Part shown: in pieces, positions 10,098 through 59,286 of the stretch
How positions within the stretch are numbered: position 1 is the first letter of the stretch
Layout: every line of letters starts with the position of its first letter
Source: an uncultured Lachnospiraceae bacterium
GTDB taxonomy: Bacteria > Bacillota > Clostridia > Lachnospirales > Lachnospiraceae
NCBI GenBank assembly: GCA_947593975.1
Contig: CANQDW010000003.1
Location: forward strand, 1,312-65,311
Direction of reading: 5' to 3'
DNA: 64,000 nucleotides
Program-made: the position numbers and the translations under genes
Notes under the pieces: generated by a model
What the model saw: the letters and a program-made list of their open reading frames with translations, nothing else
What the model was told of the DNA's origin: nothing
The model's database searches: none

Positions 10098-10367
10098 ATG
10101 AAGGCAAGACCTCTTAATTATGTTTCGGAACATCTTAACCTGCCCGCGGACGTAGTGGGCGGAGCCTGTATTGTAACTTCTTACGGGCGGAATCATATAT
10201 ATATCGAAAATTATAAAGGAATAATAGAATATACGTCAGAGCTTATACGCATACAGGGAAAAAACTGCAGGGTGGCGGTTTTTGGGACAAAGCTGTGTAT
10301 CAATTATTATACGGATAATGATATGAGGATTGACGGCAATATATGCGAGGTACATTTATCAGAATAG
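10098..10367 (+). CDS. yqfC: Sporulation protein YabP/YqfC family
   Basis: IYIENYKGIIEY...IRIQG...I.G.I motif; adjacent to yqfD. Confidence 0.88.
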   Translation: MKARPLNYVSEHLNLPADVVGGACIVTSYGRNHIYIENYKGIIEYTSELIRIQGKNCRVAVFGTKLCINYYTDNDMRIDGNICEVHLSE

Positions 10368-10383
10368 TATATGGAGGGGTTGT

Positions 10384-11637
10384 GTGTTAAAACTTATTAT
10401 CCGGTGGATAAAAGGATATCTCTTTGTGGAACTTAGCGGCAATTCACCCGAGAGGTTTATTAATCTGTGCAGGCATCACAAAATATATATACGGAAAGTA
10501 AGGCAAAGAGACGGAAAGCATACGTTTTATATGTACGCGGGAGATTATTTTAAGATACACGATACGGCATATAAGACATCTACGTATCCGCACATAATAT
10601 ACCGCAAAGGACTGCCTTTTATTATCAAAGCCGTGCTTTCTAAGAAATCCCTTGCGCCGTGTTTTATCCTTTTTATGGCGATAATATATATATTGTCGAA
10701 GATTGTATGGAACATTGATATTTCAGGGGAACTAAAACATACGGATGAAGAAATAAGAGAATATCTTTCGGAAATCGGCGTATGCGAGGGAATGAGTATT
10801 GATAAGGTTTCCGGCGACGAGATAGAGAGGCTTATACGAAACAGATATAATGATATAAGCTGGGTATCTGCCGAACTTCGCGGCACCAATGTATATATTA
10901 AAGTGCTGGAAGCAAATGTTATGGAAAGTATGCAGGATAATACCGGAAATTATTCAAGCATAACGGCTTCTTCGAAGGGCACGGTAAGATCCATTATCAC
11001 ACGGGCGGGGACGCCTATGGTAAGGCCCGGAGATAAGGTAAAAAAGGGCGACGTGCTTGTATCCGGTATCATAAATATATATAATGACAGCGGTGAGGTG
11101 GTTAAAAAGAATCCGGTATATGCGGATGCCGACATATATCTGGATACGAAATATAAGTATTCGGATGAATTTGATATGATATATATGTACAGGCAGTATA
11201 CCGGAAAAAAGAAAAAGAGCAGAGTCCTTAATATATGCGGCAGTCTCTTTTTTTTGGAAAACCCGTTAAATAAATTTGATTCCTATGAAAATTATGATAT
11301 AATGAAAGAGTGTGTGAACCTGAAGATAGCAGGAATAGATTTTAATGATATTTCGGTAACACGCAGGACGCTTAGTGAATATGAACCCGTTTTCGCAACA
11401 TATAATAATGAAGAAGCGGTAAATAAAGCGCGTACCAATCTCAGGCTGTATCTTAACAATCTGATAGAGGAAGGCGCGATAGTTAATTCAAAAGATGTAC
11501 AGGTGAGTATAAAAGACGGCATATGCCGTTCGGAAGGAAAAGTTTTTGTTACCGTGCCTCAGACGCAGAGGACGGCTGTGAGCGAACAGGACTGGAGAGT
11601 GGATGCTACTGATGAGCAGGACGGAGAAGATAATTGA
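10384..11637 (+). CDS. yqfD: Sporulation protein YqfD (SpoIV)
   Basis: SGNSPERFINLC, WVSAELRGT, GDKVKKGDVLVSG; GTG start after GGAGG. Confidence 0.9.
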   Translation: MLKLIIRWIKGYLFVELSGNSPERFINLCRHHKIYIRKVRQRDGKHTFYMYAGDYFKIHDTAYKTSTYPHIIYRKGLPFIIKAVLSKKSLAPCFILFMAIIYILSKIVWNIDISGELKHTDEEIREYLSEIGVCEGMSIDKVSGDEIERLIRNRYNDISWVSAELRGTNVYIKVLEANVMESMQDNTGNYSSITASSKGTVRSIITRAGTPMVRPGDKVKKGDVLVSGIINIYNDSGEVVKKNPVYADADIYLDTKYKYSDEFDMIYMYRQYTGKKKKSRVLNICGSLFFLENPLNKFDSYENYDIMKECVNLKIAGIDFNDISVTRRTLSEYEPVFATYNNEEAVNKARTNLRLYLNNLIEEGAIVNSKDVQVSIKDGICRSEGKVFVTVPQTQRTAVSEQDWRVDATDEQDGEDN

Positions 11638-13143: not shown

Positions 13144-14274
13144 ATGAGAAAAAATTTATTGGCAGTATTTATTGTATTGTGCGCGCTGGCATTTGCATCG
13201 GGATGCGGGAAAGGAAAAAAGCAGGAAGAGAAGGCAAATGATACCGCGACGCCCGCGCCGACGACTGAAGTTTCCGCAACGGAAGCGCCGACGGCAGAAC
13301 CCCTTCCTACGGAGGATCCGTACGCGGGAAAGGCAAAAAGCCTTCTTACCGGACAGTATATATCTGAAAAGAAAGCGAAAAAAAGACCGTATGCGGTCAT
13401 GATAAATAATATCGAGTATGCGGCAAGGTTCCACAGCGGCATATCAAAAGCGTCGATTTTATACGAAGCAAAAGTTGAGGGCGGAATAACGAGGCTTATG
13501 GGTATATTTGAAGACCCTGATGTGAAAAAACTCGGTTCAGTAAGAAGCGCAAGGCATTATTATGTAAGCGTTGCTTCAGAATATGATGCGGTATTCGTGC
13601 ATTTTGGACATACCAAATTTGCGCTTTCAAAGATAGACAAGCTTAATGTCGATAATATAAGCGGGCTTTCGGGATATGGCGGAAAAGTATTTTTCCGTGA
13701 CAACAGCATATCCGCGCCGCATAATGCGTTTACAAGTTCAAAAGGACTTGCAGCCGGCATGAGCACGCTTAAATACCGCAAGAAATATAAAGACGGCTAT
13801 GAAGGGCATTTCAAATTTTATGACGCGGATACAGACCCTGCTTCCGGAAAGGAAGCCGCTAAGGTGACGATCCAATTTTCGGGATATGCATCGCCGTATT
13901 TTGTATACGACGCCGAAAAAAAAGTATATAAGAGATACCAGTACGGCAGAAAACATATAGATACTGCCAATAATAAGCAGCTTGCATTTAAGAACCTGAT
14001 AATACAGTATGTGGACGATGAGCCTATAGTACCAGGACATGCTAAGGATTACAGGACGATCAATTTTGAAAACGCTTCCGGAAAGGGCATGTATATTACA
14101 AACGGAAAGGCTGTTAAGATCACCTGGAAGAAAAACGAGTCCAAAAAGATGATGAAATATTATGCCGAAGATGGTTCGGAACTTACTATAAATCCTGGAA
14201 AGACTTATGTCGCACTGTTCCCTGATAACGGTTCTAAGCTTACGATATCGGGAAAGAGGAAGGATAAGAAATAA
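13144..14274 (+). CDS. DUF3048 (YerB-like) lipoprotein
   Basis: Lipobox ASGC, T/P/A linker, RPYAVMINN, EGGITRL, GSVRSARHYY. Confidence 0.85.
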   Translation: MRKNLLAVFIVLCALAFASGCGKGKKQEEKANDTATPAPTTEVSATEAPTAEPLPTEDPYAGKAKSLLTGQYISEKKAKKRPYAVMINNIEYAARFHSGISKASILYEAKVEGGITRLMGIFEDPDVKKLGSVRSARHYYVSVASEYDAVFVHFGHTKFALSKIDKLNVDNISGLSGYGGKVFFRDNSISAPHNAFTSSKGLAAGMSTLKYRKKYKDGYEGHFKFYDADTDPASGKEAAKVTIQFSGYASPYFVYDAEKKVYKRYQYGRKHIDTANNKQLAFKNLIIQYVDDEPIVPGHAKDYRTINFENASGKGMYITNGKAVKITWKKNESKKMMKYYAEDGSELTINPGKTYVALFPDNGSKLTISGKRKDKK

Positions 14275-15899
14275 TGAAGGATAACTATATTAAGCAGGGC
14301 AGCATCTTAGCGGGTGCGTCCCTGCTTGTACGTATTATAGGAATGCTGTACCGTTTTCCGATGTCGAATATCATAGGCGAAGAAGGAAACGGTTTATATT
14401 CTGTAGCTTTTGAAATATATGACATCATGCTCATAATATCTTCATACAGCCTGCCTTTGGCTATTTCCAAAATGATTTCGGCAAAACGTGTAAAAAAAGA
14501 ACACGGCAACATCATGAAAATGTTCAGGTGTTCGATGATATTTGCGCTGATATCGGGCGGCGCGGCGGCGCTTATACTGTTTTTCGGCGCTCCGTTTATA
14601 GAAAGCCATATGGCGGGCGGTAAATACAGCGGACTTGCGATCCCTCTCAGGTTCCTTGCGCCTACTATATTTGTCGTTGCGGTAATGGGAGTATTAAGGG
14701 GTCTGTTCCAGGGCAAGGGTACAATGATACCTACCGCGATATCGCAGATAATAGAGCAGATCGTAAATGCATTCGTAAGCATATATGCGGCATACTCGTT
14801 AATGAAAGCCCACAATCTGTCGATGGAACTCGCGGGCTGGGGCGCTGCGGGCGGTACAATGGGAACTTTATGCGGCGCCATATCGGGCTGCGCGATACTT
14901 ATAATGGTATATGTTATTTACAGGCCGGTCTTAAAAAGACAGGCAAAGAGGGACAAAAACAGACATTTTGATTCGTCGGGAAGTATATACAAGCTGATAC
15001 TTATTACCGCGATCCCTATCATATTAAGCCAGACGGTGTATCAGATAAGCGGCATTATAGATTATTCCGTGCTTGGCGCGATACAGTCGTCTAAAGGCTG
15101 GGATGACCTTGCGGTAAAGAATGCAACAGGCCTGTACAGCACCAAATACAGGCTGCTCTTAAGCGTGCCGATCGCTATAGCGACATCCATGTCGTCTTCA
15201 ATACTTCCAAGCGTAGTGTCGTCATATGCGGCAAATGATGAAGAAGGACTGAATAAAAAGATCGCTACGGGCATTAAATTCAATCTTATGGTTGCGTTTC
15301 CGTGCTTTGCAGGGCTTACGGTATTCGGTAAACAGATACTTATGCTGCTGTTCCCTTCGCAGGATTACATAACGGGCGGAAAGCTCCTTATGGCGGGAAG
15401 CGCAGCGATAATATTGTATGCGGTATCCAATGTGACCGGCGCCGTGCTTCAGGGGATAGATAAGATGAGGCTTCCTGTTATACATTCGGCAATAGCGCTT
15501 GCGGTACACGTCGGCGCAGTTGTTCTGCTCCTTAAGTTTACGCCGGCAGGCGTATTTGCGCTCGTTGCCGGAAACGTGGTATTTCCGCTTGTGGTCTCGG
15601 CGCTTAATATGGCCTCGATATACAAATATACGACTTACAGGCAGGAAGTTGTAAAGACGTTCCTTGTGCCGTTTCTTTCATCTGTGATAATGGGAGCCGT
15701 ATCATTCGGGGTATATCATATACTTTATATGCTGTGGTCTCATAATACCGTGCTCATATTGCTCGCTGTGCTTGTTGCGGTTGTTGTTTATTTTGTGCTG
15801 TACCTTGCTCTTAAAGGCGCAACCGATGAAGAAATATACGAATTCCCCATGGGAGTCAGGATAGTTAAGCTCGGCCGCAGATTAAAAATAATACAATAA
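14274..15899 (+). CDS. MOP-superfamily flippase (SpoVB/YtgP/MurJ-like polysaccharide biosynthesis protein)
   Basis: RIIGMLYRFPM...GEEGNGLY, LRGLFQG, SQIIEQI; about 14 TM helices. Confidence 0.88.
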   Translation: MKDNYIKQGSILAGASLLVRIIGMLYRFPMSNIIGEEGNGLYSVAFEIYDIMLIISSYSLPLAISKMISAKRVKKEHGNIMKMFRCSMIFALISGGAAALILFFGAPFIESHMAGGKYSGLAIPLRFLAPTIFVVAVMGVLRGLFQGKGTMIPTAISQIIEQIVNAFVSIYAAYSLMKAHNLSMELAGWGAAGGTMGTLCGAISGCAILIMVYVIYRPVLKRQAKRDKNRHFDSSGSIYKLILITAIPIILSQTVYQISGIIDYSVLGAIQSSKGWDDLAVKNATGLYSTKYRLLLSVPIAIATSMSSSILPSVVSSYAANDEEGLNKKIATGIKFNLMVAFPCFAGLTVFGKQILMLLFPSQDYITGGKLLMAGSAAIILYAVSNVTGAVLQGIDKMRLPVIHSAIALAVHVGAVVLLLKFTPAGVFALVAGNVVFPLVVSALNMASIYKYTTYRQEVVKTFLVPFLSSVIMGAVSFGVYHILYMLWSHNTVLILLAVLVAVVVYFVLYLALKGATDEEIYEFPMGVRIVKLGRRLKIIQ

Positions 15900-16052: not shown

Positions 16053-17687
16053 ATGAAAAAAAACATTAAAAAAGCATTTTCATTAGTTTTATGTATGTCA
16101 ATGGCAGTTACGCTTGCGGCAGTATCACCGGATGCAAGCGCTGCGCCTAAAGCAAAGAAGATCACTCTTAACGCTAAAAACAAGACATTGACAGTAGGAG
16201 AGAAGTTTACGCTTAAGGTTAAGAAGATCAAACCTGGAAAAGCAAATAAGAAAGTAAGCTGGAAGACAAGCAACAAAAAGATCGTATCAGTAACCAAAAA
16301 GGGCGTTGTAAAAGCTAAAGCCGAAGGTACGGCTAAAGTTACGGCAACCTCAAAGTCAAACAAGAAGGTAAAGGCAGTATGTAAAGTTACCGTTACCGGC
16401 GCGCAGAATACGCCGCAGAATACCACGGCTCCGGCACCGACCAATACAGTAACGCAGGCGCCTACGACAGAGCCTACGCCTACACCTACCGCAACACCTA
16501 CGCCAACCCCTTCACCAACTCCGTTTGAGCTTCCGAAAGAATCGCTGAAGGACAATGCAGACTTTACAGTAGGAACAGTTGTAAACCGTGACAAGACTTA
16601 TGATAAGAACTTTACACAGCTTGCAGCACAGCAGTTTGAAGTAGTTTCATTTGAAAATGAGATGAAAGGTTATTCACTTATTGATGTCGGAGCTTCACAG
16701 GCAGCTGTTGCAACCGAAGGCGAAGGAGTAGTTAAATGCCAGTTCGGTACAGCTGACGATATGGTAAAATGGGCTCAGGATAACGGCCTTAAAGTGCGCG
16801 GACACGTATTATTCTGGGAAGAGAGTATGGCAAATGCATTCTTCTACAAGGGATATGACGAGAACGGAGAGCTTGTAGACCGTGCAACGCTCGAAGCGCG
16901 TATGAAGAGTTATGCAGACCAGGTTATCAGCCATTTTGAAACAACATTCCCGGGAGAAGTTATCGCATGGGACGTAGTTAACGAGGCTGTTATGGTAGGC
17001 GAAAACGACGGCAAAAACGATCCTAAGGACGAGCAGACAGGACTGTATCTTAATAATACAGGAAAATTCTATCAGATATTTGGCGGCGGAGAATATATTA
17101 AATACGCATTCCAGTGCGCTCAGGACGCAAAGAAGGCTGCAAATGCAGATATTGATCTGTTCTACAACGACTTCAACTGCTTCCAGTCTCCAAAGACAAA
17201 CCGTATAATTGCTCTTATCAATTATCTGAACGAAGATGAGAACAATAAGCTTATGGACTGCATGGGTATGGAAGGATATGTACTTACATACTGGCCAAGC
17301 GCAAATGACGTTAAGAGCGCGATGGAGAAATTTGCAAACCTTGGAGTTAAAGTTGGTATCAACGAGCTTTGCATAAGATTAAGCCCGCAGTATTCAAGCG
17401 ACGGCAAAACGGTTACAGAAGCGGATATAGCAGCGCATGTACAGAAATGCGCAGATATGTTCCAGGTATACTGCGACTTTAATAAGGCTCATCCGGGAGT
17501 ACTTACAAACGTAAGCATCTGGGCTCTGTTTGACAGACCTGACCTTATGTCGGAAGCTGATAAAGAAGAGGCAGACCGTCATTATGATTATGGCGTATAC
17601 GGAACACATTCAGGTCTCTTTGATGAACAATACAAAGCTAAGGAAGCATTTGATAAGGTTATCGAAGTGTTAAAGGCCAATAAATAA
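16053..17687 (+). CDS. Secreted GH10 endo-1,4-beta-xylanase-like enzyme: signal peptide, Lys-rich Big_2, PT linker, GH10 domain
   Basis: ENEMK, RGHVLFW, WDVVNEA (acid/base), YNDFN, INEL (nucleophile); PTPTPT linker. Confidence 0.9.
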   Translation: MKKNIKKAFSLVLCMSMAVTLAAVSPDASAAPKAKKITLNAKNKTLTVGEKFTLKVKKIKPGKANKKVSWKTSNKKIVSVTKKGVVKAKAEGTAKVTATSKSNKKVKAVCKVTVTGAQNTPQNTTAPAPTNTVTQAPTTEPTPTPTATPTPTPSPTPFELPKESLKDNADFTVGTVVNRDKTYDKNFTQLAAQQFEVVSFENEMKGYSLIDVGASQAAVATEGEGVVKCQFGTADDMVKWAQDNGLKVRGHVLFWEESMANAFFYKGYDENGELVDRATLEARMKSYADQVISHFETTFPGEVIAWDVVNEAVMVGENDGKNDPKDEQTGLYLNNTGKFYQIFGGGEYIKYAFQCAQDAKKAANADIDLFYNDFNCFQSPKTNRIIALINYLNEDENNKLMDCMGMEGYVLTYWPSANDVKSAMEKFANLGVKVGINELCIRLSPQYSSDGKTVTEADIAAHVQKCADMFQVYCDFNKAHPGVLTNVSIWALFDRPDLMSEADKEEADRHYDYGVYGTHSGLFDEQYKAKEAFDKVIEVLKANK

Positions 17688-17715
17688 TTTCAAGTAATAT
17701 TGTAACAGTTATCGT

Positions 17716-17760
17716 AAAACATCCTGTATGCAGATAAGTCTGCGTTCAGGATGTTTTTTT
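17716..17760 (+). terminator. Rho-independent terminator after the xylanase gene
   Basis: AAAACATCCTG...CAGGATGTTTTTTT with an inner TGCAGA/TCTGCG stem. Confidence 0.85.
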
Positions 17761-17795
17761 GCGCGTATATATGATGTCATAGACAGATAATTACA

Positions 17796-17832
17796 ATTAG
17801 TACTTGACAATATATAGTACTAATAGTAATAT
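17796..17832 (+). promoter_or_regulatory. Sigma-A promoter with an inverted-repeat operator over the -35
   Basis: TTGACA (17804)-17 nt-TAATAT; the perfect IR ATTAGTACT-N11-AGTACTAAT straddles the -35. Confidence 0.7.
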
Positions 17833-17864: not shown

Positions 17865-18752
17865 ATGATTTATATGGATAATAAAAAAAGGAAAAAGTAT
17901 GTAATAAAGCTTAAGGGAATTACATTTCTTGCTCCGAGCGCATTAGGCGTGCTTGTATTTTTTGTTATTCCTTTTTTTGTTATCATATATTACAGTCTTG
18001 TGGACAATCCGGTCCAGAAAAATTTTGTAGGTCTTAAGAATTTCGTGTCGTTAATTACAAACGTTGCTTTTTCGGAAGCATCCGTGAACACGCTGGTTTT
18101 TTCCGCAATAGCGGTACCGATGGCGGTCATATTATCGCTTCTTCTGGCAATGCTCTTAGATATGGGGCTTCCCGGCAAAAGTCATTTCAGAACGATCTTT
18201 CTGTGCCCGCTTATGGTGCCGGTCGCGTCGGTAGTTATTGTCTGGCAGGTGATATTCGACACGAACGGAGCGCTTAATGAGATCATTAAGAATTTCGGCG
18301 GGACGGCTGTGGACTGGATGAATTCACGCTATAACCAGCTCATTATATTGAGTCTGTTTCTGTGGAAAAATCTTGGCTATAATATGGTCCTGTTCCTTGC
18401 GGGACTTAATAATATGCCCGATGACCTTATCGAGGTTGCAAGGCTTGAGGGCGCGGGCGCATGGAAGATATTCTGGAAGATAAAGATAAGGTATCTTTCG
18501 CCAATGATATTCTTTGTAGCAATATTATCGCTTATCAATTCCTTTAAAATATTCAGGGAGGTATACCTTCTTACCGGGGGATATCCCTACGGACATATAT
18601 ATTATATGCAGCATTTTATGAATAACCAGTTTGAAGCTCTCAATTACCAGAAGCTGTCGGCTGCCGCCGTGCTTATGAGTATAATAATGATAATTATAAT
18701 AGGAATCCTCTTTATCATTGAAAATAAGTTTGGAAGAGAGGTGGAAGAGTAG
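17865..18752 (+). CDS. Carbohydrate-importer-type ABC permease (MalF-like)
   Basis: 6 TM helices; WKNLGYNMVLFLAGL; EAA loop EVARLEGA. Confidence 0.9.
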   Translation: MIYMDNKKRKKYVIKLKGITFLAPSALGVLVFFVIPFFVIIYYSLVDNPVQKNFVGLKNFVSLITNVAFSEASVNTLVFSAIAVPMAVILSLLLAMLLDMGLPGKSHFRTIFLCPLMVPVASVVIVWQVIFDTNGALNEIIKNFGGTAVDWMNSRYNQLIILSLFLWKNLGYNMVLFLAGLNNMPDDLIEVARLEGAGAWKIFWKIKIRYLSPMIFFVAILSLINSFKIFREVYLLTGGYPYGHIYYMQHFMNNQFEALNYQKLSAAAVLMSIIMIIIIGILFIIENKFGREVEE

Positions 18753-19664
18753 ATGCAGCGAAAAAAGAAAGTGTTTCGCGTATTTGGATTTATACTGGCG
18801 CTTATATTTTCGGTATTGTTCATATATCCGACTGTTGTCACGCTTGCGGATTCTTTTATGTCGGAAAAGGAAATCTCCGCGCATTACGGAAGAGTGCTTG
18901 AAAAAAATACCGACGAAGGAATGTATTATGCGGACGGGGGACGGGATACAACGTATAAAACCGATAAGATAAGCATAAGGATAATCCCAAACAAAGTTTC
19001 GTTATCGCAGTATGCGTCGGTATTGTTTAAGAGTCCCGAATATCTGTTTAAGTTCTGGAATTCCGTGGAACTGGTAGTGCCGATACTGGTATTTCAGATA
19101 ATGGTCGCGCTCGGGGCGGCATACAGTTTTTCGCGTTATAGCGGGCGTATTAAGGAAATTGCCTTTTTCCTGTATATAATACTTATGCTTATGCCGTATC
19201 AGGTTACGCTTGTTCCGAACTTTATAGTTGCAGACTGGATGGGAACGCTTAATACATACTGGTCGATCATACTGCCGGGAGTATTTTCGCCATTCGCAGT
19301 ATTTATACTGACAAAATATATGAGGCGTATCCCTTCGTCCTATGTTGAGGCTGCAAAGATTGACGGCGCGGGCGATTGGAAGATATTTACCAAAATATAT
19401 ATGCCTTTGTCAAAAGGCGCTATAGTGTCGGTAGCTATACTTATATTTATTGATTATTGGAATATGGTGGAACAGCCGCTTATCATGCTCTCGGATACCG
19501 ACAAACATCCGCTTGGGGTATTTTTAGCGCAGATCAATACAGGGGAAGCCGGACTGGCATTTGCGATAGCTTCGATATATATGATACCGTGCATCCTGCT
19601 GTTTTTGTATTGTGAAGAATATATTGTAGAAGGAATCACCTATTCAGGTGGCCTTAAAGCATAA
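18753..19664 (+). CDS. Carbohydrate-importer-type ABC permease (MalG-like)
   Basis: FWNS, AAYSFSR, LMPYQVTLVPNF; EAA loop EAAKIDGAG. Confidence 0.9.
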   Translation: MQRKKKVFRVFGFILALIFSVLFIYPTVVTLADSFMSEKEISAHYGRVLEKNTDEGMYYADGGRDTTYKTDKISIRIIPNKVSLSQYASVLFKSPEYLFKFWNSVELVVPILVFQIMVALGAAYSFSRYSGRIKEIAFFLYIILMLMPYQVTLVPNFIVADWMGTLNTYWSIILPGVFSPFAVFILTKYMRRIPSSYVEAAKIDGAGDWKIFTKIYMPLSKGAIVSVAILIFIDYWNMVEQPLIMLSDTDKHPLGVFLAQINTGEAGLAFAIASIYMIPCILLFLYCEEYIVEGITYSGGLKA

Positions 19665-19674
19665 GGAGGGTAAA

Positions 19675-21375
19675 ATGAAAAAGAACAAAACAAGAAAAGA
19701 ATGGGTGAAAAATCTATTGATAGTATTTCTGGCAGTCATGCTCGTGCTTACTTTCTGTTCAAATACTATTATGAATATGTATCTGCCGGAAGTGCAGACC
19801 GAGGCGGTAAGGTCCGGCAAGATCCAGGACAGTATAAGGGGCAGCGGAGTGGCTGAACTTAACCAGGCTTATCAGATCAAGCTTCCGTCAGTGCGCACGG
19901 TTAAAACAGTGCTTGTAAAGGAAGGACAGGAAGTAAAAGTCGGGGATGTGCTGTTTCAGCTTGATAAAGGCGACGAAGCTGAGCTTGACGCTGCAAAGAG
20001 CACATATCTTGAGTATCAGACTGAATATCAGAAAAAACTGATAGGTAAAGATTATAATTATGATAAAGAAGAACTTGCCATAGAAAGCGCAAGGTTAGAT
20101 TACAAAAAAGCGGTAAAGGCGCTTAACACTGCCGTTAAGAATAAAAAGCAGGCAAAGAAAAAGACGAAAGAACTTAATTCGGTGAATAATAAAGTTGCCG
20201 AACTGGAAAAAAGTTCCGCGTCATATGAACAAAAAATAGCAGGCGTCGGAGATGTTGATGAAAAATCTGCATATGACGATCTTGAATCAAAGAAGCGTAC
20301 GCTTACGGTACTTAAAAATGAACTTAGCGATATAGATAACGATATTGCCGCGCTTAAAGAAGCCGGCGCGCCGCAGTCTGATATTACGGAAAAAGAGCGG
20401 GCAAGACGCGATAAAGCGGCAGAGGTAAATAATATGCAGGCTGACGTTGATAGTGCATCCGAAGCCGTAAACGCCGCGGCAGCAAATGCGGATAAAGTTA
20501 AAGTATATACGGATAAAAAAGCAAAAATAGATGCGCAGCTGGAAACGTACCGCGCAAGTCAGGCGAAGCTTAGCGCAGAACTTGAGGCGCTTAACGCGTC
20601 GATGTCAAAAGAAGAAGCGCAGGCGCAGGTTACGGAAAAGGAGCTTGCATGGAATAATCTAATCGCTGATTATGAGATTAAAAAATCAGAAGATTCTTAT
20701 AATAAGCAGACAGATGATATCGACCTTAAGGCGGCAAAGGACAAGTTAGACGAGCAGAAAAAACTTGTGGATGAACTTACGGATACTATAGGTAAGTCTG
20801 AGATCACTGCCCAGATGGCAGGAGTAGTAACGGGGATAAGCTGTATGCCGGGCGATTCCACACAGCCCGATACCCCGCTTGCAGTTATTTCCGCAGACGA
20901 CGGCTGCTTTACGCTTAAGGTATCCGTAACAAAAGAACAGGCTGTTAAGGTAAAACCGGGACAGAGCGCATCTCTTACAAATTACTGGGGAAGCGACGGA
21001 AGCGCGGTTTTAAGGAGCATAGAACCTGATACGGAGGATCCGGCAAACAGGATACTGTGTCTGGAAGTAAAAGGCGAGGATATAGCCGAGGGCGATACTA
21101 TTTCGGTATCCATAGGCGGTGAAAGCAAAGAATATGACGCTATCGTTTCCAAAAACAGCATATATGAGGATAATAACGGCAAATTTGTACTTGTGATCAC
21201 GAACAAAAATACGCCGCTTGGAACAAGATATATTGCAGCAAGACGAGATGTCGAGGTGCTTGCGGAAGATGATATGCGGGCCGCCATATCCATGGAAACA
21301 TACGGCAATGATTATGTGATCACGGCGTCGTCAAAAGTTGTAGAACCGGGTAAACAGGTAAAATTAAAGGAGTAA
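19675..21375 (+). CDS. Efflux-type membrane fusion / periplasmic adaptor protein with a very long coiled coil
   Basis: N-terminal TM; lipoyl halves VLVKEGQEVKVGDVLFQL and ITAQMAGVVTGI...GD; long heptad region; beta-barrel and C-terminal VITASSKVVEPGKQV. Confidence 0.85.
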   Translation: MKKNKTRKEWVKNLLIVFLAVMLVLTFCSNTIMNMYLPEVQTEAVRSGKIQDSIRGSGVAELNQAYQIKLPSVRTVKTVLVKEGQEVKVGDVLFQLDKGDEAELDAAKSTYLEYQTEYQKKLIGKDYNYDKEELAIESARLDYKKAVKALNTAVKNKKQAKKKTKELNSVNNKVAELEKSSASYEQKIAGVGDVDEKSAYDDLESKKRTLTVLKNELSDIDNDIAALKEAGAPQSDITEKERARRDKAAEVNNMQADVDSASEAVNAAAANADKVKVYTDKKAKIDAQLETYRASQAKLSAELEALNASMSKEEAQAQVTEKELAWNNLIADYEIKKSEDSYNKQTDDIDLKAAKDKLDEQKKLVDELTDTIGKSEITAQMAGVVTGISCMPGDSTQPDTPLAVISADDGCFTLKVSVTKEQAVKVKPGQSASLTNYWGSDGSAVLRSIEPDTEDPANRILCLEVKGEDIAEGDTISVSIGGESKEYDAIVSKNSIYEDNNGKFVLVITNKNTPLGTRYIAARRDVEVLAEDDMRAAISMETYGNDYVITASSKVVEPGKQVKLKE

Positions 21376-21378
21376 GGG

Positions 21379-22398
21379 ATGAAAAAGAAGATAGTATTTC
21401 TGCTGATTTGTCTGATATTCATATTTGCGGGCGTGATAAGCTACAAAAGGATTGCCGGAGGTATATCCATGCAGTCGCCTGAAAAAAGATGGTCGGATGA
21501 CGGCAGCGCATATGCCCATATAGCTGTATATTTTCCTGAAACGCAGAGTATAACTTTAGAGGATGTAGACTCTTACAGAAATTCGCTCAATTTATATATA
21601 AAAGAAGATGGGATAGAAGTAAAAGAAGGCAGCCGCGCATATATTGACGCATACAGCGCGTATGGCAATGTGGAAATATCGGTAACTGACAGGAACACAT
21701 CCTGTAAGACGGACGTTACATACTGCGGCGGAGATTATTTTTTCTTTCATCCTGCGGAATTCTTATACGGAAGCGGATTTGGTGAAGACGATACCATGCG
21801 GGATAAAGCCGTGATCGATGAAAACGCGGCATGGATGTTATACGGCAGTACAGATATATGCGGCAAATACATGATGATGGGAGACAAGATGTTTTATATA
21901 TGCGGCGTAGTAAGATCAACAGAAAAAAATCTTAATATATATGTTCCTTATAATGATAAAAATAATGCGGAAGAAAAACACATAACCTGTTATGAGACGG
22001 TATATCCGGACTTGATATCAGACTATGCATACAAAAAAGTAATGTCTCTTGTAAATGAGGATACTTTATTTGCGGATGAAGAATCTGAAAAAGATGATAC
22101 TTCGTCTGCAGACGTTATTAATATCACTGACCGGTTTGATATAAGCAATATATTTGGAGTTGTATGCTCGTATGGGAAGCGTTCGATGCAGACAAACGCG
22201 ATCATATATCCGGACTGGGAAAATGAATGCAGAGAAGCTGAGGATTTCTGCGCGCTTGCTATGGTATGGGTTGTTATATGGATAATCATATCGGTATGTC
22301 TTGCACTTAAATGGTTTGCGGGTGATGTTGTTTCTGCGGCCGTAAGGTTTGCGGGAAGTATGAAAAACACATTACAAAACAAATTCAAGAGAAAATAA
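21379..22398 (+). CDS. MacB-like periplasmic-core domain protein with only two TM helices
   Basis: KAVIDENAAWMLYGSTDICGK...FYICGVV is a MacB PCD-type motif; one N-terminal and one C-terminal TM. Confidence 0.7.
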   Translation: MKKKIVFLLICLIFIFAGVISYKRIAGGISMQSPEKRWSDDGSAYAHIAVYFPETQSITLEDVDSYRNSLNLYIKEDGIEVKEGSRAYIDAYSAYGNVEISVTDRNTSCKTDVTYCGGDYFFFHPAEFLYGSGFGEDDTMRDKAVIDENAAWMLYGSTDICGKYMMMGDKMFYICGVVRSTEKNLNIYVPYNDKNNAEEKHITCYETVYPDLISDYAYKKVMSLVNEDTLFADEESEKDDTSSADVINITDRFDISNIFGVVCSYGKRSMQTNAIIYPDWENECREAEDFCALAMVWVVIWIIISVCLALKWFAGDVVSAAVRFAGSMKNTLQNKFKRK

Positions 22399-22412
22399 TC
22401 AAAAAACAAATA

Positions 22413-22450
22413 AAGAAAATCCCCTCATTCACACAGACGGGGATTTTCTT
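22413..22450. terminator. Bidirectional terminator between convergent genes
   Basis: AAGAAAATCCCC-N14-GGGGATTTTCTT. Confidence 0.8.
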
Positions 22451-22480
22451 AACATCATATAAAATTATACATATTTAAGT

Positions 22481-23188
22481 TTAATCAAGAAGCCTGTTGA
22501 TATATTCATCAACTAAAGAATCAGCCATTGCGGGATCGACATCCGGTATACTGAACAAAAGTTGTTCTTTTACTTTTTCGCAGTAATTAAAATAGTTGAT
22601 CTCATCGGAAACTTCAGGATCTTTGATTGATTTTAAAGTGCTTTTATCAATATTTTCCGAGAGCCATTCATTAACGGAATCAATTTTTTTGTTTTCAATG
22701 CCAATCTGTGCTTTTATTGTCCTGGATTTGCTGTACATTGCAATTCCGCCGATGAAGAATAAAATAAATACGCCAAGCAATATATACTGTGTAAATTCTG
22801 CTGATACGATACTGAATACGCCGGCAATATTAAGTATCCCGAAGATAATTCCTGCAAATCCGACAAGCATGCACGTATAAGCGCTAAACAGATATTCCTG
22901 GTATTGATCCGCTTTTTTAACAAATGTATTAGAAATAGAAGCCTGCGCTTCGTTTATATCATTTTCAAAATCCTTAGGACTGTAGCTTTCGTCTTCAAAA
23001 GACGGGTCGGCTTCATTTTCGAATCCTTCATACTCTAATCCATCATACATTTGTGCGCCGGCGTTTTCTTCGGCAGCATCATCAGGATCATTTATATCAT
23101 CCAGTGAATCGACCAGAGGAACCCTGCAGTCGTAGCAGTTGGTGATTCCCTCACGGTATTCACATTTACATACAGGACACCATGGCAT
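22481..23188 (-). CDS. Hypothetical membrane protein with N-terminal Zn ribbon
   Basis: CPVC..EY..G...CYDC, acidic linker, 2 TM helices; GGAGG SD. Confidence 0.75.
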   Translation of the reverse strand: MPWCPVCKCEYREGITNCYDCRVPLVDSLDDINDPDDAAEENAGAQMYDGLEYEGFENEADPSFEDESYSPKDFENDINEAQASISNTFVKKADQYQEYLFSAYTCMLVGFAGIIFGILNIAGVFSIVSAEFTQYILLGVFILFFIGGIAMYSKSRTIKAQIGIENKKIDSVNEWLSENIDKSTLKSIKDPEVSDEINYFNYCEKVKEQLLFSIPDVDPAMADSLVDEYINRLLD

Positions 23189-56958: not shown

Positions 56959-56982
56959 TGCATAATGGGAAGGAGTAAAAAA

Positions 56983-59286
56983 ATGAGGAAATATTTTTAT
57001 TTGTTTGTATTAATGGTAATGACCGCGGCATTTGCTGTACTTATGGCTGCATGTTCCAAAAAGGGCGAATATGTATCGGATGAATATGTGTTTGAAAAGA
57101 TACCGCTTAAGGCAGATGCCGGTAAGTATGCTTCTGAATATGAATACGGCATATCGCAGCTGTATATAGATCAGGAGGCCGGTACAGCGCTTAACGGAAA
57201 CGAACTGTATTATATACTGCAGCTTACGCTTTATAATCCTGAGGAATATAAAAATGAGCGCGGCAGATCCGTTACAAAATTATGCAGGTTCAATATCAAA
57301 ACGGGTGAAGATAACGAATTATTTGATCTGGAAGACGGGATATATATATACGGATTTCATGTTGATAGTGAAGACCGGTTAAGAATGGTATGTTCCGATT
57401 CCGATGATGTCTTAAGGCTTGTAACTTATACAATGACCGGCGAATGTATTTCCGATGTGAACCTTACGGATATAATATACGGAAAAAACGATAATAAGGG
57501 GATAAACACTGCCTTTTTGGCGGACGGGACATTGTATGCCCAGACGGGCGGCGAAGAAGGCGGATATATTTATAAGCTTGATCTTGATGGAAATATAGCG
57601 GGCGCAGTACCCGATGAGGGCCTTTATTTTAGCAATATGATCATAGATAATAACGGAAATGTCATAGATTACGAACTTAATGAAGAAGGTATCTGCTACA
57701 GGCATCTGGATTTTGACAAAGGAGAGGTAAGTCAGGGAAAAACCATACCTTTTGTAAATCCCGATAACGAAGATGAGAAATATGATTTTGGAAGCGGGAT
57801 AAATTCATCCCTGATAGACGGAAGCGGCGACACCACATTTTTTGTCAAGGAACTGGAAAAGCTGTATCAGTATAATGAAGATACGGGTGAATTAAAACCC
57901 GTGCTTAACTGGCTTGATACGGGGCTTGTCGGTGAGTTTGTAAAAAGCATGACGCCTATGGACGACGGAAGGTATTTCTGTATATGCAGTACGGAATCAG
58001 GCGCTGAGACCGCAGCCGGATTTATTAAAAAAGCGGATGAAAATGCTCCTGCGAAAAGGGTTATCACATGCGCGGCGGTAAATCCTGACAAAAAGCGCGC
58101 CTATGATCTTGAAAGCCGGATCGCAGATTATAATATGACTAGCGATAAATACAGGGTTGTGTATAAAAGTTATGCAAAGTCGGATAATCCCATATCAGAT
58201 TTTGCGCAGGATATAATATCCGGAGAAGTACCGGATGTGCTTGGGGTATCTTCGCTTGATATAAGAGAGTATATAAATAAGGGGCTTATGGAAGATCTGA
58301 GTCCGTACCTTAAGAAGGATGATACGCTTAATGAGGGGTATTTTGTGGACGGACTGCTTGATGCGTCGAAAATTGACGATAAAATATATTATCTTATAAG
58401 CGGGTTTGACCTTGAGACCATTGCCGCAAAAGCATCCGACGCAGGAAAATATAAAGACGGTTACACGTACGAGGACCTTCTTAAGTACTATCATTCAAAA
58501 CCTGAGGGCACAATGCTTAATACATATGAATCTAAAGAAAATATATTTGAAAGGTTTATCGGTTACGATATTGACAGTTATATAGACTGGGATACCGGTC
58601 AGATAAGTTTTGACAGTGAAAAATTCAGGAAAATGGCGGAATTCTGCAATGGATTCCCTGATGAAGCGGACATAGACATCTCATGGAAAGAGGTTTATGA
58701 AAAAATAAAGGACGGTACGATGCTTACCAATGACGCCTCTTGTTTTTATGATATGGGCATATTTATACGGTTAAATAAAAAGCTTTTCGATAATGACGCA
58801 GTCTATATAGGATATCCTTCGGAAGACGGCAGGGGCACATATATCAATCCGGACGCCGGCTCGCTGGCAATGACTTCTGTATCGGAAAATAAGGAAGGCG
58901 CATGGGATTTCATAAAATATATCATTACATCTCCGCCTGATCATTCGGCCGTTCTTCCGTCCGGTAAAAAAGAGTTTGAAAAGATCGTAAAAAAGTTTTC
59001 CGCAGCGGAACCATATGTTGATGAAAACGGACTTGTCGTGACGCCGTATAACGGCGGGGCAGGCGGTTATGAAGACTTTAGCGTGGAAGCCGCCCCTCTT
59101 ACGAAAGATGAGGTGCAGATCATATACGATCTTATAAAAGACAGCAAAGTAAAGACTGATAACAGCGAGATCGTTAATATGGTAAAGATAGCGCTTGGCG
59201 ATTATTTTAAAGGAAATAAGAGTCTTGATGATGCAATAGGCATTATACAGGACAGAGTAAAAAAATATGTAAATGAGAACAGATAA
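56983..59286 (+). CDS. Very large lipoprotein: beta-propeller-like N-region plus family-1 extracellular solute-binding domain
   Basis: Lipobox LMAAC; repeated beta-hairpin units; C-terminal GEVPDVL, GLMEDLSPYL, NKEGAWDFIKY. Confidence 0.78.
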   Translation: MRKYFYLFVLMVMTAAFAVLMAACSKKGEYVSDEYVFEKIPLKADAGKYASEYEYGISQLYIDQEAGTALNGNELYYILQLTLYNPEEYKNERGRSVTKLCRFNIKTGEDNELFDLEDGIYIYGFHVDSEDRLRMVCSDSDDVLRLVTYTMTGECISDVNLTDIIYGKNDNKGINTAFLADGTLYAQTGGEEGGYIYKLDLDGNIAGAVPDEGLYFSNMIIDNNGNVIDYELNEEGICYRHLDFDKGEVSQGKTIPFVNPDNEDEKYDFGSGINSSLIDGSGDTTFFVKELEKLYQYNEDTGELKPVLNWLDTGLVGEFVKSMTPMDDGRYFCICSTESGAETAAGFIKKADENAPAKRVITCAAVNPDKKRAYDLESRIADYNMTSDKYRVVYKSYAKSDNPISDFAQDIISGEVPDVLGVSSLDIREYINKGLMEDLSPYLKKDDTLNEGYFVDGLLDASKIDDKIYYLISGFDLETIAAKASDAGKYKDGYTYEDLLKYYHSKPEGTMLNTYESKENIFERFIGYDIDSYIDWDTGQISFDSEKFRKMAEFCNGFPDEADIDISWKEVYEKIKDGTMLTNDASCFYDMGIFIRLNKKLFDNDAVYIGYPSEDGRGTYINPDAGSLAMTSVSENKEGAWDFIKYIITSPPDHSAVLPSGKKEFEKIVKKFSAAEPYVDENGLVVTPYNGGAGGYEDFSVEAAPLTKDEVQIIYDLIKDSKVKTDNSEIVNMVKIALGDYFKGNKSLDDAIGIIQDRVKKYVNENR

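Follow-up and report, generated by a model that had tools for sequence, protein, structure and literature searches.

We found that four tightly packed genes at positions 17865-22398 of the analysed window, a stretch of DNA 64,000 nucleotides (64 kb) in length, are the membrane core of a conserved five- to six-component ABC machine of gut Lachnospiraceae, Oscillospiraceae, and other Clostridia. Based on sequence, structure prediction, and comparative genomics, this core is a binding-protein-dependent importer of the CUT1 (MalFGK2) type. The importer combines two permeases with EAA loops, an ATPase of the UgpC/MalK/MsmX type that has a regulatory domain at its C-terminus, and between one and three giant lipoprotein binding proteins (SBPs). 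Two extra subunits are always present. These are an adaptor resembling MacA, whose N-terminal TM helix is conserved, and a 2-TM membrane protein that carries only a MacB-type periplasmic core domain (PCD). An importer joined to a membrane-fusion protein (MFP) and a stand-alone PCD is an uncharacterised combination without a described precedent in the literature searched. No description of such an importer was found in full-text searches, and neither the MFP nor the PCD protein nor the giant SBP has a dedicated model in NCBIfam. The first-pass annotation had called the system uncharacterised, and this stands, as neither source contained a characterised orthologue.

The genes lie on the forward strand in the order permA, permB, MFP, and PCD protein (ORF list), and their intergenic spacing of 0, 10, and 3 nt fits translational coupling. 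Directly 5' of the operon is a GH10 xylanase gene (Pfam), whose intrinsic terminator on the forward strand (17712-17768; -25.4 kcal/mol, z -6.8, followed by a T-run) marks the 5' boundary. Between this hairpin and permA, we identified a forward-strand sigma-70-like promoter candidate at 17804-17832 (TTGACA, 17-nt spacer, TAATAT), a consensus match only, at 10 of 12 positions. The 3' end is closed by a bidirectional intrinsic terminator (22408-22455; -17.8 kcal/mol, z -6.5 on the forward strand and -17.9 kcal/mol, z -4.8 on the reverse strand) that is common to the PCD gene and the convergent gene at 22481-23188. Both terminators have loops of more than 8 nt and were missed by a consensus scan; they were confirmed by folding. 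The ORFs, the promoter-like site, and the hairpins at both ends agree with the initial description of a four-gene operon with its own promoter and terminator. The window operon was absent from RNA runs and present only in DNA runs (rabbit gut and other gut metagenomes), and the locus of Lachnospiraceae bacterium V9D3004 was likewise absent from the RNA runs searched. In bovine-gut metatranscriptome contigs, each of the five genes of a Bovifimicola-like cassette is represented by fragments, and the apparent joints in these contigs of related strains have anchors of 20-35 nt (20-21 nt for long skips). These fragments weakly suggest that the cassette is expressed.

The first two genes encode ABC importer permeases, permA of the MalF/UgpA/SugA type (17865-18752, forward strand, 295 aa) and permB of the MalG/UgpE/SugB type (18753-19664, forward strand, 303 aa). 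Both match PF00528 with 67.6 bits (cut-off 26.4) and have six TM helices in the TM scan. An EAA-like loop, EVARLEGAG, is located at about residue 190 of permA, and an EAA loop, EAAKIDGAG, at residue 199 of permB. By NCBIfam, permA is UgpA-like (E 1e-27) and permB is GlcU/UgpE/MalG-like. The closest solved structures in the PDB were SugA (7cad, 9e-23), MalF, and AlgM1 for permA, and SugB (1e-17), AlgM2, and MalG for permB. Together the two proteins provide the transmembrane subunits expected of a CUT1 type I importer, two BPD_transp_1 proteins each with an EAA coupling loop, in line with their first assignment as EAA-loop sugar-importer permeases.

The third gene encodes the MFP, or periplasmic adaptor (19675-21375, forward strand, 566 aa). 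We placed its start at ATG 19675, which has GGAGG 7 nt upstream and agrees with the 566-aa database gene call; the mechanical ORF start, GTG 19648, was rejected on these two grounds. The protein matches HlyD_3 (32.6 bits, cut-off 22.2) and Biotin_lipoyl_2 in Pfam and has the full set of adaptor domains: an N-terminal TM helix as membrane anchor (residues 14-32, TM scan), an alpha-hairpin set into a split lipoyl domain, a beta-barrel, and a membrane-proximal domain. The best Foldseek matches of its AF2 model (whole-model pLDDT 83) were to MacA (9qgy_G, 2.8e-14, and 5nik_D), followed by AcrA, MexA, and EmrA, in the range 1e-14 to 1e-11. In the model, helices 102-229 and 234-373 form the hairpin between the lipoyl halves with pLDDT >90, and the arms of ~128 and ~140 residues are ~19-21 nm long. 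These values match the roughly 280 aa of coiled coil and the ~20 nm length that had been estimated earlier. Short breaks are modelled at 123-129, 191-195, and 308-311, and the hairpin may be kinked and thus shorter than 20 nm. The family alignment contains 13 invariant residues in the TM helix and juxtamembrane region and none in the hairpin, which suggests that the MFP has specific intramembrane partners and that the hairpin is spacer-like. Over 74 family members the hairpin insert ranges from 167 to 549 aa and is bimodal by lineage, corresponding to a hairpin length of ~12-41 nm. Short inserts of ~175 aa occur in L015 and L016, and long ones of >450 aa in L041 and L074.

The fourth gene encodes the PCD protein (21379-22398, forward strand, 339 aa), identified by MacB_PCD (PF12704, 28.0 bits, cut-off 27), AF2, and Foldseek. 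The TM scan detected TM helices only at residues 4-22 and 292-310, and the protein stops ~29 residues past TM2. Its AF2 model (pLDDT 78, pTM 0.74) matched MacB (5lil, 1.2e-11) and the isolated ectodomains of MacB (3ftj, TMt 0.64) and YknZ (5f9q, TMt 0.67) in Foldseek. The periplasmic core domain (Porter plus Sabre) is located between TM1 and TM2, as in MacB (type VII). No FtsX TM3-4 block, FtsX match, or NBD coupling element was detected by Pfam, TM scan, or AF2, and a four-TM FtsX-type membrane domain with a cognate MacB-type NBD is missing family-wide as well. Because it does not have the four-TM FtsX-type domain, the protein contains a MacB domain but is not a MacB-family transporter. The first-pass annotation had correctly described a MacB-like extracytoplasmic domain with only two TM helices and no FtsX block. 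Its term "truncated MacB" does not hold, as two TM helices are normal for this protein, which belongs to a large, separate family. This family comprises at least 632 clusters at 50% identity (E<=1e-30), almost all of 330-450 aa, and shares the motifs GGDFFFFHP and YPxWEN..R in the family alignments. A truncated MacB pseudogene was ruled out by the family-wide length distribution and the invariant motifs. Fusion proteins were found to support the topology. In PCD::SBP fusions (P0206, L036, and L082), the lipoprotein signal of the SBP is retained as a third TM helix, which is consistent with it. In PCD::HAD fusions, the HAD domain follows TM2, and the orientation is thereby fixed, with both termini inside and the PCD outside.

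The operon itself contains neither an ATPase nor an SBP gene, as first annotated; for the machine as a whole this does not hold, since relatives carry both in cis. A trans-encoded giant lipoprotein SBP is located in the window at 56983-59286 (forward strand; SBP_bac_1). Its ORF opens at 56965, and an AGGAG RBS favours ATG 56983. It is made of a lipobox (LMAAC), an N-terminal beta-propeller of ~330 aa, and a C-terminal family-1 sugar SBP with PDB matches to CbpC and YesO. The N-domain matched beta-propellers at 3e-21 in a profile search against PDB and bears a weak likeness to propellers in the periplasmic part of two-component regulators (Pfam Reg_prop); when this domain alone was the query, a word-index homology search gave no matches. 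In the related locus L003, the SBP encoded immediately 5' of the permease genes is 37% identical to the window protein (E 2e-102). Judged from this homology, the window protein is the probable cognate family-1 binding protein of the cassette, encoded outside the operon. In relatives, one to three giant SBPs occur per locus as diverged paralogues. A MalK-type ATPase had no match anywhere in the 64-kb window. The ATPase encoded in cis at L010 exceeds the UgpC cut-off (482 bits, cut-off 432) and contains ABC_tran, OB_MalK, and TOBE_2. L010, L021, and L044 are examples of loci with all components in cis. UgpC/MalK-type ATPases are often shared or orphan in Firmicutes, and the one serving the window cassette is presumed to be encoded elsewhere in the same genome. 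The early guess that the operon borrows the large lipoprotein at 56983 and an MsmX-like ATPase gains support from relatives, in which both are encoded in cis.

We then analysed the gene neighbourhood in 80 related species-level genomes, a co-occurrence test that had been named beforehand. The order permA-permB-MFP-PCD was contiguous in 70 of the 80 loci, so the test was passed, and the remainder showed contig-end breaks or fused ORFs. The giant SBP was found in cis in 70 of these genomes, and the UgpC/MalK-type ATPase gene was located directly 3' of the PCD gene in 32. The same synteny was seen in another six loci, from metagenomes. In a reciprocal metagenome survey seeded with the SBP (the query was a 5-sequence alignment, a 15-sequence alignment being too diverse), the cassette adjoined the SBP in 30 of 44 resolvable loci. 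Counted by species-level genomes, at least 124 Lachnospiraceae, Oscillospiraceae, and other Clostridia carry the cassette, and the four genes remain together across families at 25-35% identity. An independent MFP/PCD pair serving a distant MacB was ruled out by this synteny and by the PCD::SBP fusions.

The neighbours of the cassette bear on whether it is an ordinary xylo-oligosaccharide importer of a xylanase locus, with the MFP and PCD genes an unrelated efflux remnant placed downstream by chance. A GH10 gene is indeed directly upstream in the window, as had been pointed out, and in the closest relative (L011), and L003 has another GH10 gene 7 kb downstream. However, L011 is the only one of the 80 relatives' loci with GH10 directly upstream, so the link to xylanase is lineage-specific. 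Further against this reading, the xylanase gene has its own terminator, the four genes stay together across families, the 2-TM PCD protein is a family norm and not a remnant, and PCD::SBP fusions exist. We regard this explanation as highly improbable and largely refuted by synteny. A xylan locus was likewise ruled out by the neighbour census, which covered 87 upstream and 128 downstream ORFs and found no CAZyme or regulator kept beside the cassette across lineages. The arrangement of a Gram-positive polysaccharide utilisation locus (gpPUL), a transporter conserved alongside CAZymes and a cognate regulator, was not seen in this census, and the surroundings of the cassette in the window are housekeeping genes.

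A large or complex glycan is the probable substrate, as suggested by CUT1 membership, the sugar-SBP fold, the Reg_prop-like propeller, and the multiple diverged SBP paralogues per locus. Since no conserved CAZyme or sugar regulator adjoins the cassette and its context is housekeeping, this assignment holds at the family level only. As a working model, the components could assemble into a single importer supercomplex, in which the MFP and the PCD protein would form a duct through the wall zone, a mechanism to which we give somewhat less than an even chance. The PCD protein would sit in the membrane beside the permeases and present to the adaptor the same docking surface that the MacB PCD presents to MacA. 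The adaptor would oligomerise on it, probably as a hexamer as in MacA, YknX, and Spr0693, to give a long tube or stalk through the inner wall zone and the peptidoglycan, directly above the importer. The giant SBPs would catch substrate at the base of this structure and pass it to the permeases, with uptake powered by ATP hydrolysis of the MalK-type ATPase. The duct could offer a bulky substrate protected access through the wall or, alternatively, hold the wall open above the transporter. Several points count against such a duct. Peptidoglycan is normally porous to oligosaccharides, which makes the need for one questionable. An adaptor ring above the permeases could get in the way of an 85-kDa SBP when it docks. 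Moreover, the MFP tubes and MacB PCDs of known systems work in the outward direction, as valves for expulsion.

The last point leads to an outward-acting machine, in which the MFP/PCD pair would work as in MacAB, YknXYZ, and Spr0693-95 and use the adaptor tube to rid the membrane surface of a substrate, with a peptide, a lipid-linked glycan, and a toxic by-product as candidates. The MalFGK2-type conformational cycle would then stand in for the FtsX/NBD engine, and the SBPs would be triggers or substrate loaders. The intact PCD and MFP folds count in favour of expulsion, as does the flanking-gene census, in which no sugar-utilisation genes were kept nearby. However, the engine bears the signature of uptake: its permeases have the type I importer fold and EAA loops, its ATPase is of the MalK type, and each locus encodes one to three paralogous SBPs. 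To our knowledge, no exporter with a type I importer TMD fold has been described. The PCD protein also does not have TM3-4 and the coupling helix, which carry mechanotransmission in MacB. We therefore consider export improbable, even with all characterised MFPs and MacB PCDs serving export or expulsion (PMC5985334, PMC5768738).

The long, length-variable coiled coil and the housekeeping context without a regulator would also suit a device that, like FtsEX, transduces mechanical force or remodels the envelope. Here a ligand-loaded SBP would trigger ATP cycles, and the motion would pass through the PCD to the coiled coil. The target of this motion would be the wall or a wall enzyme; alternatively, the motion would serve to signal wall or nutrient status. 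The ectodomains of the MacB family often have functions outside the cytoplasm other than transport, FtsEX-PcsB and LolCDE being examples (PMC5985334). However, neither the cassette nor its flanks contain a conserved effector such as a hydrolase or kinase, and the adaptor retains the full four-domain architecture of MacA, unlike an enzyme-tethering coiled coil. These observations make a mechanotransducer quite improbable.

In textbooks, MFPs and MacB ectodomains belong to efflux and mechanotransmission, and type I ABC systems that depend on binding proteins are importers. The operon joins the two and is strictly conserved, which breaks this division and bears on the role of adaptor proteins in bacteria without an outer membrane. 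The carriers belong to dominant fibre-degrading gut groups and include the cultured Konateibacter massiliensis, Bovifimicola ammoniilytica, and Lachnospiraceae bacterium V9D3004. Across the family, the adaptors form a natural series of hairpin lengths from ~12 to 41 nm that lends itself to comparison with wall thickness. If the duct serves uptake, it would change the view of nutrient capture through thick cell walls in the gut microbiota, and an inward conduit could permit selfish capture of large glycans through peptidoglycan. The cassette might then be the first uptake system on an efflux-type scaffold, with a 12-41 nm MFP tube on a free-standing MacB core domain acting as an inward conduit or wall-opening chimney in monoderm gut bacteria. 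A type I importer with an ATP cycle mechanically coupled to a MacB-type ectodomain would be just as new. We consider these broader claims rather unlikely.

The cassette resembles the CUT1 importers MalFGK2-MalE, LpqY-SugABC, and AlgM1M2SS-AlgQ in its two 6-TM BPD_transp_1 permeases with EAA loops, its family-1 SBP lipoprotein, and, in cis in its relatives, the UgpC/MalK-type ATPase. It differs from MalFGK2, SugABC, and AlgM1M2SS, which have no membrane-fusion protein or MacB-type ectodomain subunit, and its SBP is about twice the normal size and contains an N-terminal beta-propeller that separates the lipid anchor from the SBP fold. By analogy, the proposed duct would share with the MCE-type trans-envelope lipid importers (Mla, Pqi, Let, and mycobacterial Mce1/4) the concept of an ABC engine under a multimeric tube or needle, through which substrate crosses the envelope towards the membrane; these importers differ in having unrelated folds and another ABC type, MCE rings in place of an MFP, lipid substrates, and diderm or mycolate envelopes. 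As in FtsEX-PcsB/CwlO, a MacB-family ectodomain is combined with a long coiled-coil partner outside the Gram-positive membrane, but the cassette has no hydrolase domain, its adaptor is a true MFP, and its ATPase and TMDs are of the importer type. With MacAB-TolC, YknWXYZ of Bacillus, and Spr0693-0694-0695 of S. pneumoniae, it shares the four-domain MacA fold and N-terminal TM helix of the adaptor; the partner ectodomain has the PCD fold of MacB and YknZ, and, as for YknX and Spr0693, the host is monoderm and has no outer-membrane channel. Unlike in these pumps, the PCD carrier has two TM helices and not four, there is no MacB-type NBD or coupling helix, and the co-encoded engine is an importer. 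The hairpin barrel of Spr0693 is 5.6 nm high, and the complete assembly reaches 15.4 nm, a height that according to its authors corresponds to the inner wall zone (PMC5768738). At ~20 nm, the cassette hairpin is ~3.5 times as long, and in relatives it reaches up to ~41 nm.

An ORF listing confirmed the four genes of the first-pass annotation and their boundaries: they lie on the same strand at 17865-22398, separated by intergenic gaps of 0, 10, and 3 nt. The products of permA (17865-18752) and permB (18753-19664) each matched BPD_transp_1 with 67.6 bits (cut-off 26.4), the nearest curated models being UgpA/MalF/GlcT and GlcU/UgpE/MalG, respectively. Each permease contains six hydrophobic segments and an EAA-type loop; among solved structures, the two are closest to SugA/SugB, MalF/MalG, and AlgM1/AlgM2, all of them permeases of importers. 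The third gene encodes a membrane-fusion protein (MFP, the adaptor) with HlyD_3 and Biotin_lipoyl_2 matches. Its ORF mechanically opens at GTG 19648 and its true start is ATG 19675, with GGAGG 7 nt before it, giving a 566-aa product identical to the call in the public protein collection. The fourth gene (21379-22398) encodes a protein with just two hydrophobic helices (residues 4-22 and 292-310) that matched MacB_PCD, the MacB-type periplasmic core domain (PCD), with 28.0 bits, narrowly over the gathering score of 27. A promoter-like sequence, recognized by its consensus match (TTGACA-17-TAATAT), is located 33 nt 5' of permA. The GH10 xylanase gene upstream has its own strong terminator (z -6.8 versus shuffled controls), and the operon's 3' end has a bidirectional terminator (z -6.5 versus shuffled controls).

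Many adaptor homologues were found, and the permease-permease-MFP-PCD order was identical in 6 out of 6 neighbourhoods fetched, with adaptor identity as low as 33% in an Oscillospiraceae genus. The fetched loci add a giant SBP of ~770-875 aa directly up- or downstream, and in one homologous locus, L010, a MalK-type ATPase gene immediately follows the PCD gene; both are missing from the window operon. When 185,579 species-representative genomes were scanned by motif, 124 encoded a PCD-protein relative, nearly all gut MAGs from Lachnospiraceae, Oscillospiraceae, and other Clostridia. The three cultured carriers are Bovifimicola ammoniilytica, Konateibacter massiliensis, and Lachnospiraceae bacterium V9D3004.

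With one HMM per component, we scored every ORF of the best 80 loci. The four-gene order was contiguous in 70, confirming by neighbourhood survey that the permeases, MFP, and PCD protein co-occur; the other 10 were cut by contig ends or had the PCD ORF fused with the next gene. A giant SBP was present in cis in 70 of the 80 (1-3 copies), and a MalK-type ATPase gene directly followed the cassette in 32, mainly in Oscillospiraceae. The L010 ATPase scored 482 bits against the NCBIfam UgpC subfamily cut-off of 432 and has OB_MalK and TOBE_2 domains. The earlier description of a machine without ATPase or binding protein therefore holds for the window operon but not for the system. Loci with neither component in cis are a minority (the window and, for example, L011, L014, L049, and L057), and no MalK-type gene was found within the 64-kb window. 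In Firmicutes, CUT1 systems usually share an ATPase encoded by an orphan gene. These surveys reveal a conserved module of importer-type TMDs, a MalK-type ATPase, and giant sugar-type SBPs, to which a MacA-type adaptor and a stand-alone MacB PCD are always added. Close to the cassette, the Konateibacter locus (L039:12380-16010) also encodes a classical ABC-ATPase, MFP, and MacB-type permease set, and another carrier (L009:1-2759) an ABC-ATPase and MacB-type permease with no MFP, indicating that the same genomes keep ordinary MacAB-like pumps too.

A lipoprotein that had been flagged at 56983 in the window proved to be a homologue of the SBP found in cis at locus L003 (37% identity over ~500 residues, E 2e-102). 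Its ORF (56965-59286, 773 aa) opens at ATG 56965; the likely start is ATG 56983, behind AGGAG, in agreement with the earlier call. A lipobox was detected in 84 of 99 strong SBP ORFs, whose lengths from the start codon were 749-917 aa. The C-terminal half of the giant SBPs is a family-1 sugar SBP (PDB matches CbpC and YesO). The N-terminal domain (~330-400 aa) is poorly conserved, with a mean column identity of 25%; its profile matched beta-propellers in the PDB (Cake10, 3e-21; a PQQ-type propeller, 7e-13), and 7 of 15 members had weak Pfam Reg_prop matches. No NCBIfam model covers the giant SBPs. In a reverse metagenome scan seeded with the SBP, the cassette was adjacent in 30 of 44 resolvable loci, 12 held an orphan SBP like that of the window, and two (L162 and L169) paired more distant SBPs with ordinary CUT1 permeases and had no MFP or PCD. 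The SBP family thus shows a strong, though not exclusive, association with the cassette. Some loci without a nearby cassette carry tandem arrays of 3-5 giant SBP paralogues that are more distant (L151:9344-21163, L155:8523-16869, and L133).

An AF2 model of the PCD protein, built on a 14-sequence alignment (pLDDT 77.9, pTM 0.74), begins with a TM helix, continues with an ectodomain of mixed alpha/beta structure (45-248), and ends in a long TM helix at the C-terminus. Foldseek against the PDB matched this model to MacB (5lil, 1.2e-11), the isolated MacB periplasmic domain (3ftj, TMt 0.64), and the YknZ ectodomain (5f9q, TMt 0.67), with Spr0695, LolC/E, YbbP, and HrtB lower. By its predicted fold, the protein is a true MacB-type periplasmic core domain that lacks the FtsX TM3-4 block. 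It had been described as a truncated MacB. A full HMMER pass over 1.84 billion representative proteins argues otherwise: the family comprises 632 clusters at E<=1e-30 and 856 at E<=1e-10, nearly all of 330-450 aa, so the two-TM form is the family norm and no truncation. Two ectodomain motifs are invariant: GGDFFFFHP and, immediately before TM2 at the outer face of the membrane, YPxWEN..R.

Gene fusions join the PCD protein to other proteins. In P0206 (1089 aa), it is joined to a giant SBP, and the same fused ORF occurs in L036 (9944-13219) and L082 (9920-13207). The SBP lipoprotein signal is kept after TM2 in P0206 and would therefore serve as a third TM, placing the SBP outside; signal peptidase II might still cut at the lipobox, yielding two proteins. 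In one sub-clade including B. ammoniilytica, a generic HAD-IA hydrolase follows TM2 (P0130-P0152; L007:8001-9656; L015, L016, and L018; PCD ORFs of ~558 aa), which fixes an N-in, PCD-out, C-in topology. This cytoplasmic C-terminal HAD domain weakly resembles sugar-phosphatases and beta-PGM.

The adaptor model (pLDDT 83.4, helical part >90) contains a TM helix (7-35), a first lipoyl half, a hairpin made of helices 102-122, 130-190, and 196-229, a 4-residue tip (230-233), and helices 234-307 and 312-373, and then the second lipoyl half, a beta-barrel, and a membrane-proximal domain. Foldseek placed MacA on top (9qgy_G, 2.8e-14; 5nik_D), followed by AcrA, MexA, EmrA, and HlyD. A straight hairpin with the predicted arms of ~128 and ~140 residues would be ~19-21 nm long (0.15 nm per residue); kinks are possible at three short breaks. 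By comparison, the Gram-positive adaptor Spr0693 has a hairpin barrel 5.6 nm in height; measured from the membrane, the full Spr0693-95 assembly is 15.4 nm tall, a height that the authors of that study related to the inner wall zone (PMC5768738). In 74 adaptors of the family, the two lipoyl halves are separated by an insert of 167 to 549 aa (median 383), which would give hairpins of roughly 12-41 nm. These very long hairpins vary in length by lineage: in the L011-L090 adaptors, insert length is bimodal (~275-300 and ~375-425 aa) and tracks lineage and cis-ATPase presence, with medians of ~295 aa without and ~406 aa with a cis ATPase. The loci with HAD fusions have the shortest adaptors (insert about 167-176 aa).

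Across the family, 13 invariant adaptor residues fall in the TM helix and juxtamembrane stretch and others in the barrel and membrane-proximal domains; the hairpin has none. Such a pattern is expected of specific membrane-level partners and a spacer- or tube-like hairpin with no conserved tip partner. Monoderms have no TolC-type channel. We count the conservation patterns and both kinds of fusion as evidence that the parts touch.

The window operon follows a GH10 xylanase gene (16053-17687) encoding a signal peptide, a Big_2 domain, and a Thr/Pro-rich linker. Pfam annotation of the two ORFs closest to the cassette on either flank (upstream, 87 ORFs; downstream, 128) showed no family conserved across lineages. 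The commonest families were lineage-specific: DUF711 (11/87) and the metallo-beta-lactamase fold (10/87) upstream, GGDEF/Cache (8/128) and UxaC (5/128) downstream. The proposed xylanase link failed here, as GH10 was upstream solely in L011, from a 75%-identical rabbit-gut relative; xylanase adjacency is thus no property of the system, which does not resemble a Gram-positive PUL. A plain xylan importer beside an unrelated efflux remnant, a reading that the neighbouring xylanase might invite, is largely refuted by the census and the constant gene order, and we regard it as very improbable.

Other window neighbours are housekeeping or sporulation genes (IF-2, RibF, YqfD, PhoH, MurJ-like flippase, TyrRS, GltB, CarB, HisRS, QueH, DnaG, and RpoD). 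Immediately 5' of the xylanase gene, 13144-15899 encodes a DUF3048 lipoprotein and a MurJ/Polysacc_synt-type flippase, and YqfD (10330-11637) marks the organism as a spore-former; this is an envelope and housekeeping region. The convergent gene beyond the operon (22481-23188, - strand) encodes a 235-aa protein that combines two TM helices with a zinc-ribbon (CxxC...CxxC) at its N-terminus; it matched NCBIfam 'zinc ribbon-containing (seleno)protein DG' far below cut-off and is not conserved beside the cassette. Sequencing runs that contain the window's sequence are all DNA, from rabbit-gut and other gut metagenomes, with none from RNA. Bovine-gut metatranscriptome contigs cover the five genes of the Bovifimicola-type cassette at 90-99% identity and low depth, which is weak evidence of expression because DNA carry-over may account for it.

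In the reading that we tentatively put forward, at somewhat less than an even chance, the PCD protein beside the permeases would provide the adaptor's usual docking platform, the adaptor oligomer would extend above the importer as a tube or stalk crossing the wall zone, and the SBPs would bring substrate, probably a large glycan, for ATP-driven uptake. An importer duct faces several difficulties: the adaptor ring and SBP docking may conflict sterically, peptidoglycan is porous to oligosaccharides, and the flank census found no conserved sugar-catabolic neighbours. The outward bias of every known MFP/MacB system is a further difficulty and points instead to a machine for outward expulsion; such a machine would be driven by the importer core, and we consider it unlikely. 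An FtsEX-like mechanotransducer appears about as unlikely. The remaining probability is reserved for functions beyond these readings.

Compared with known systems, the TMDs and SBPs are those of CUT1 importers, and the corresponding ATPase was identified in relatives and not in the 64-kb window. The adaptor belongs to the MFP family at the level of its predicted fold. The PCD protein is not a member of the MacB transporter family, as it has no 4-TM FtsX domain and no cognate NBD, so that only the PCD domain is common to both. A full-text literature search turned up no paper that links an importer to an MFP or a MacB domain. Public annotations name the components individually, as "HlyD family efflux transporter periplasmic adaptor subunit", "biotin/lipoyl-binding protein", "ABC transporter permease", and "HAD-IA family hydrolase". 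The kinds of component are already known, and what is new is the architecture that combines them.
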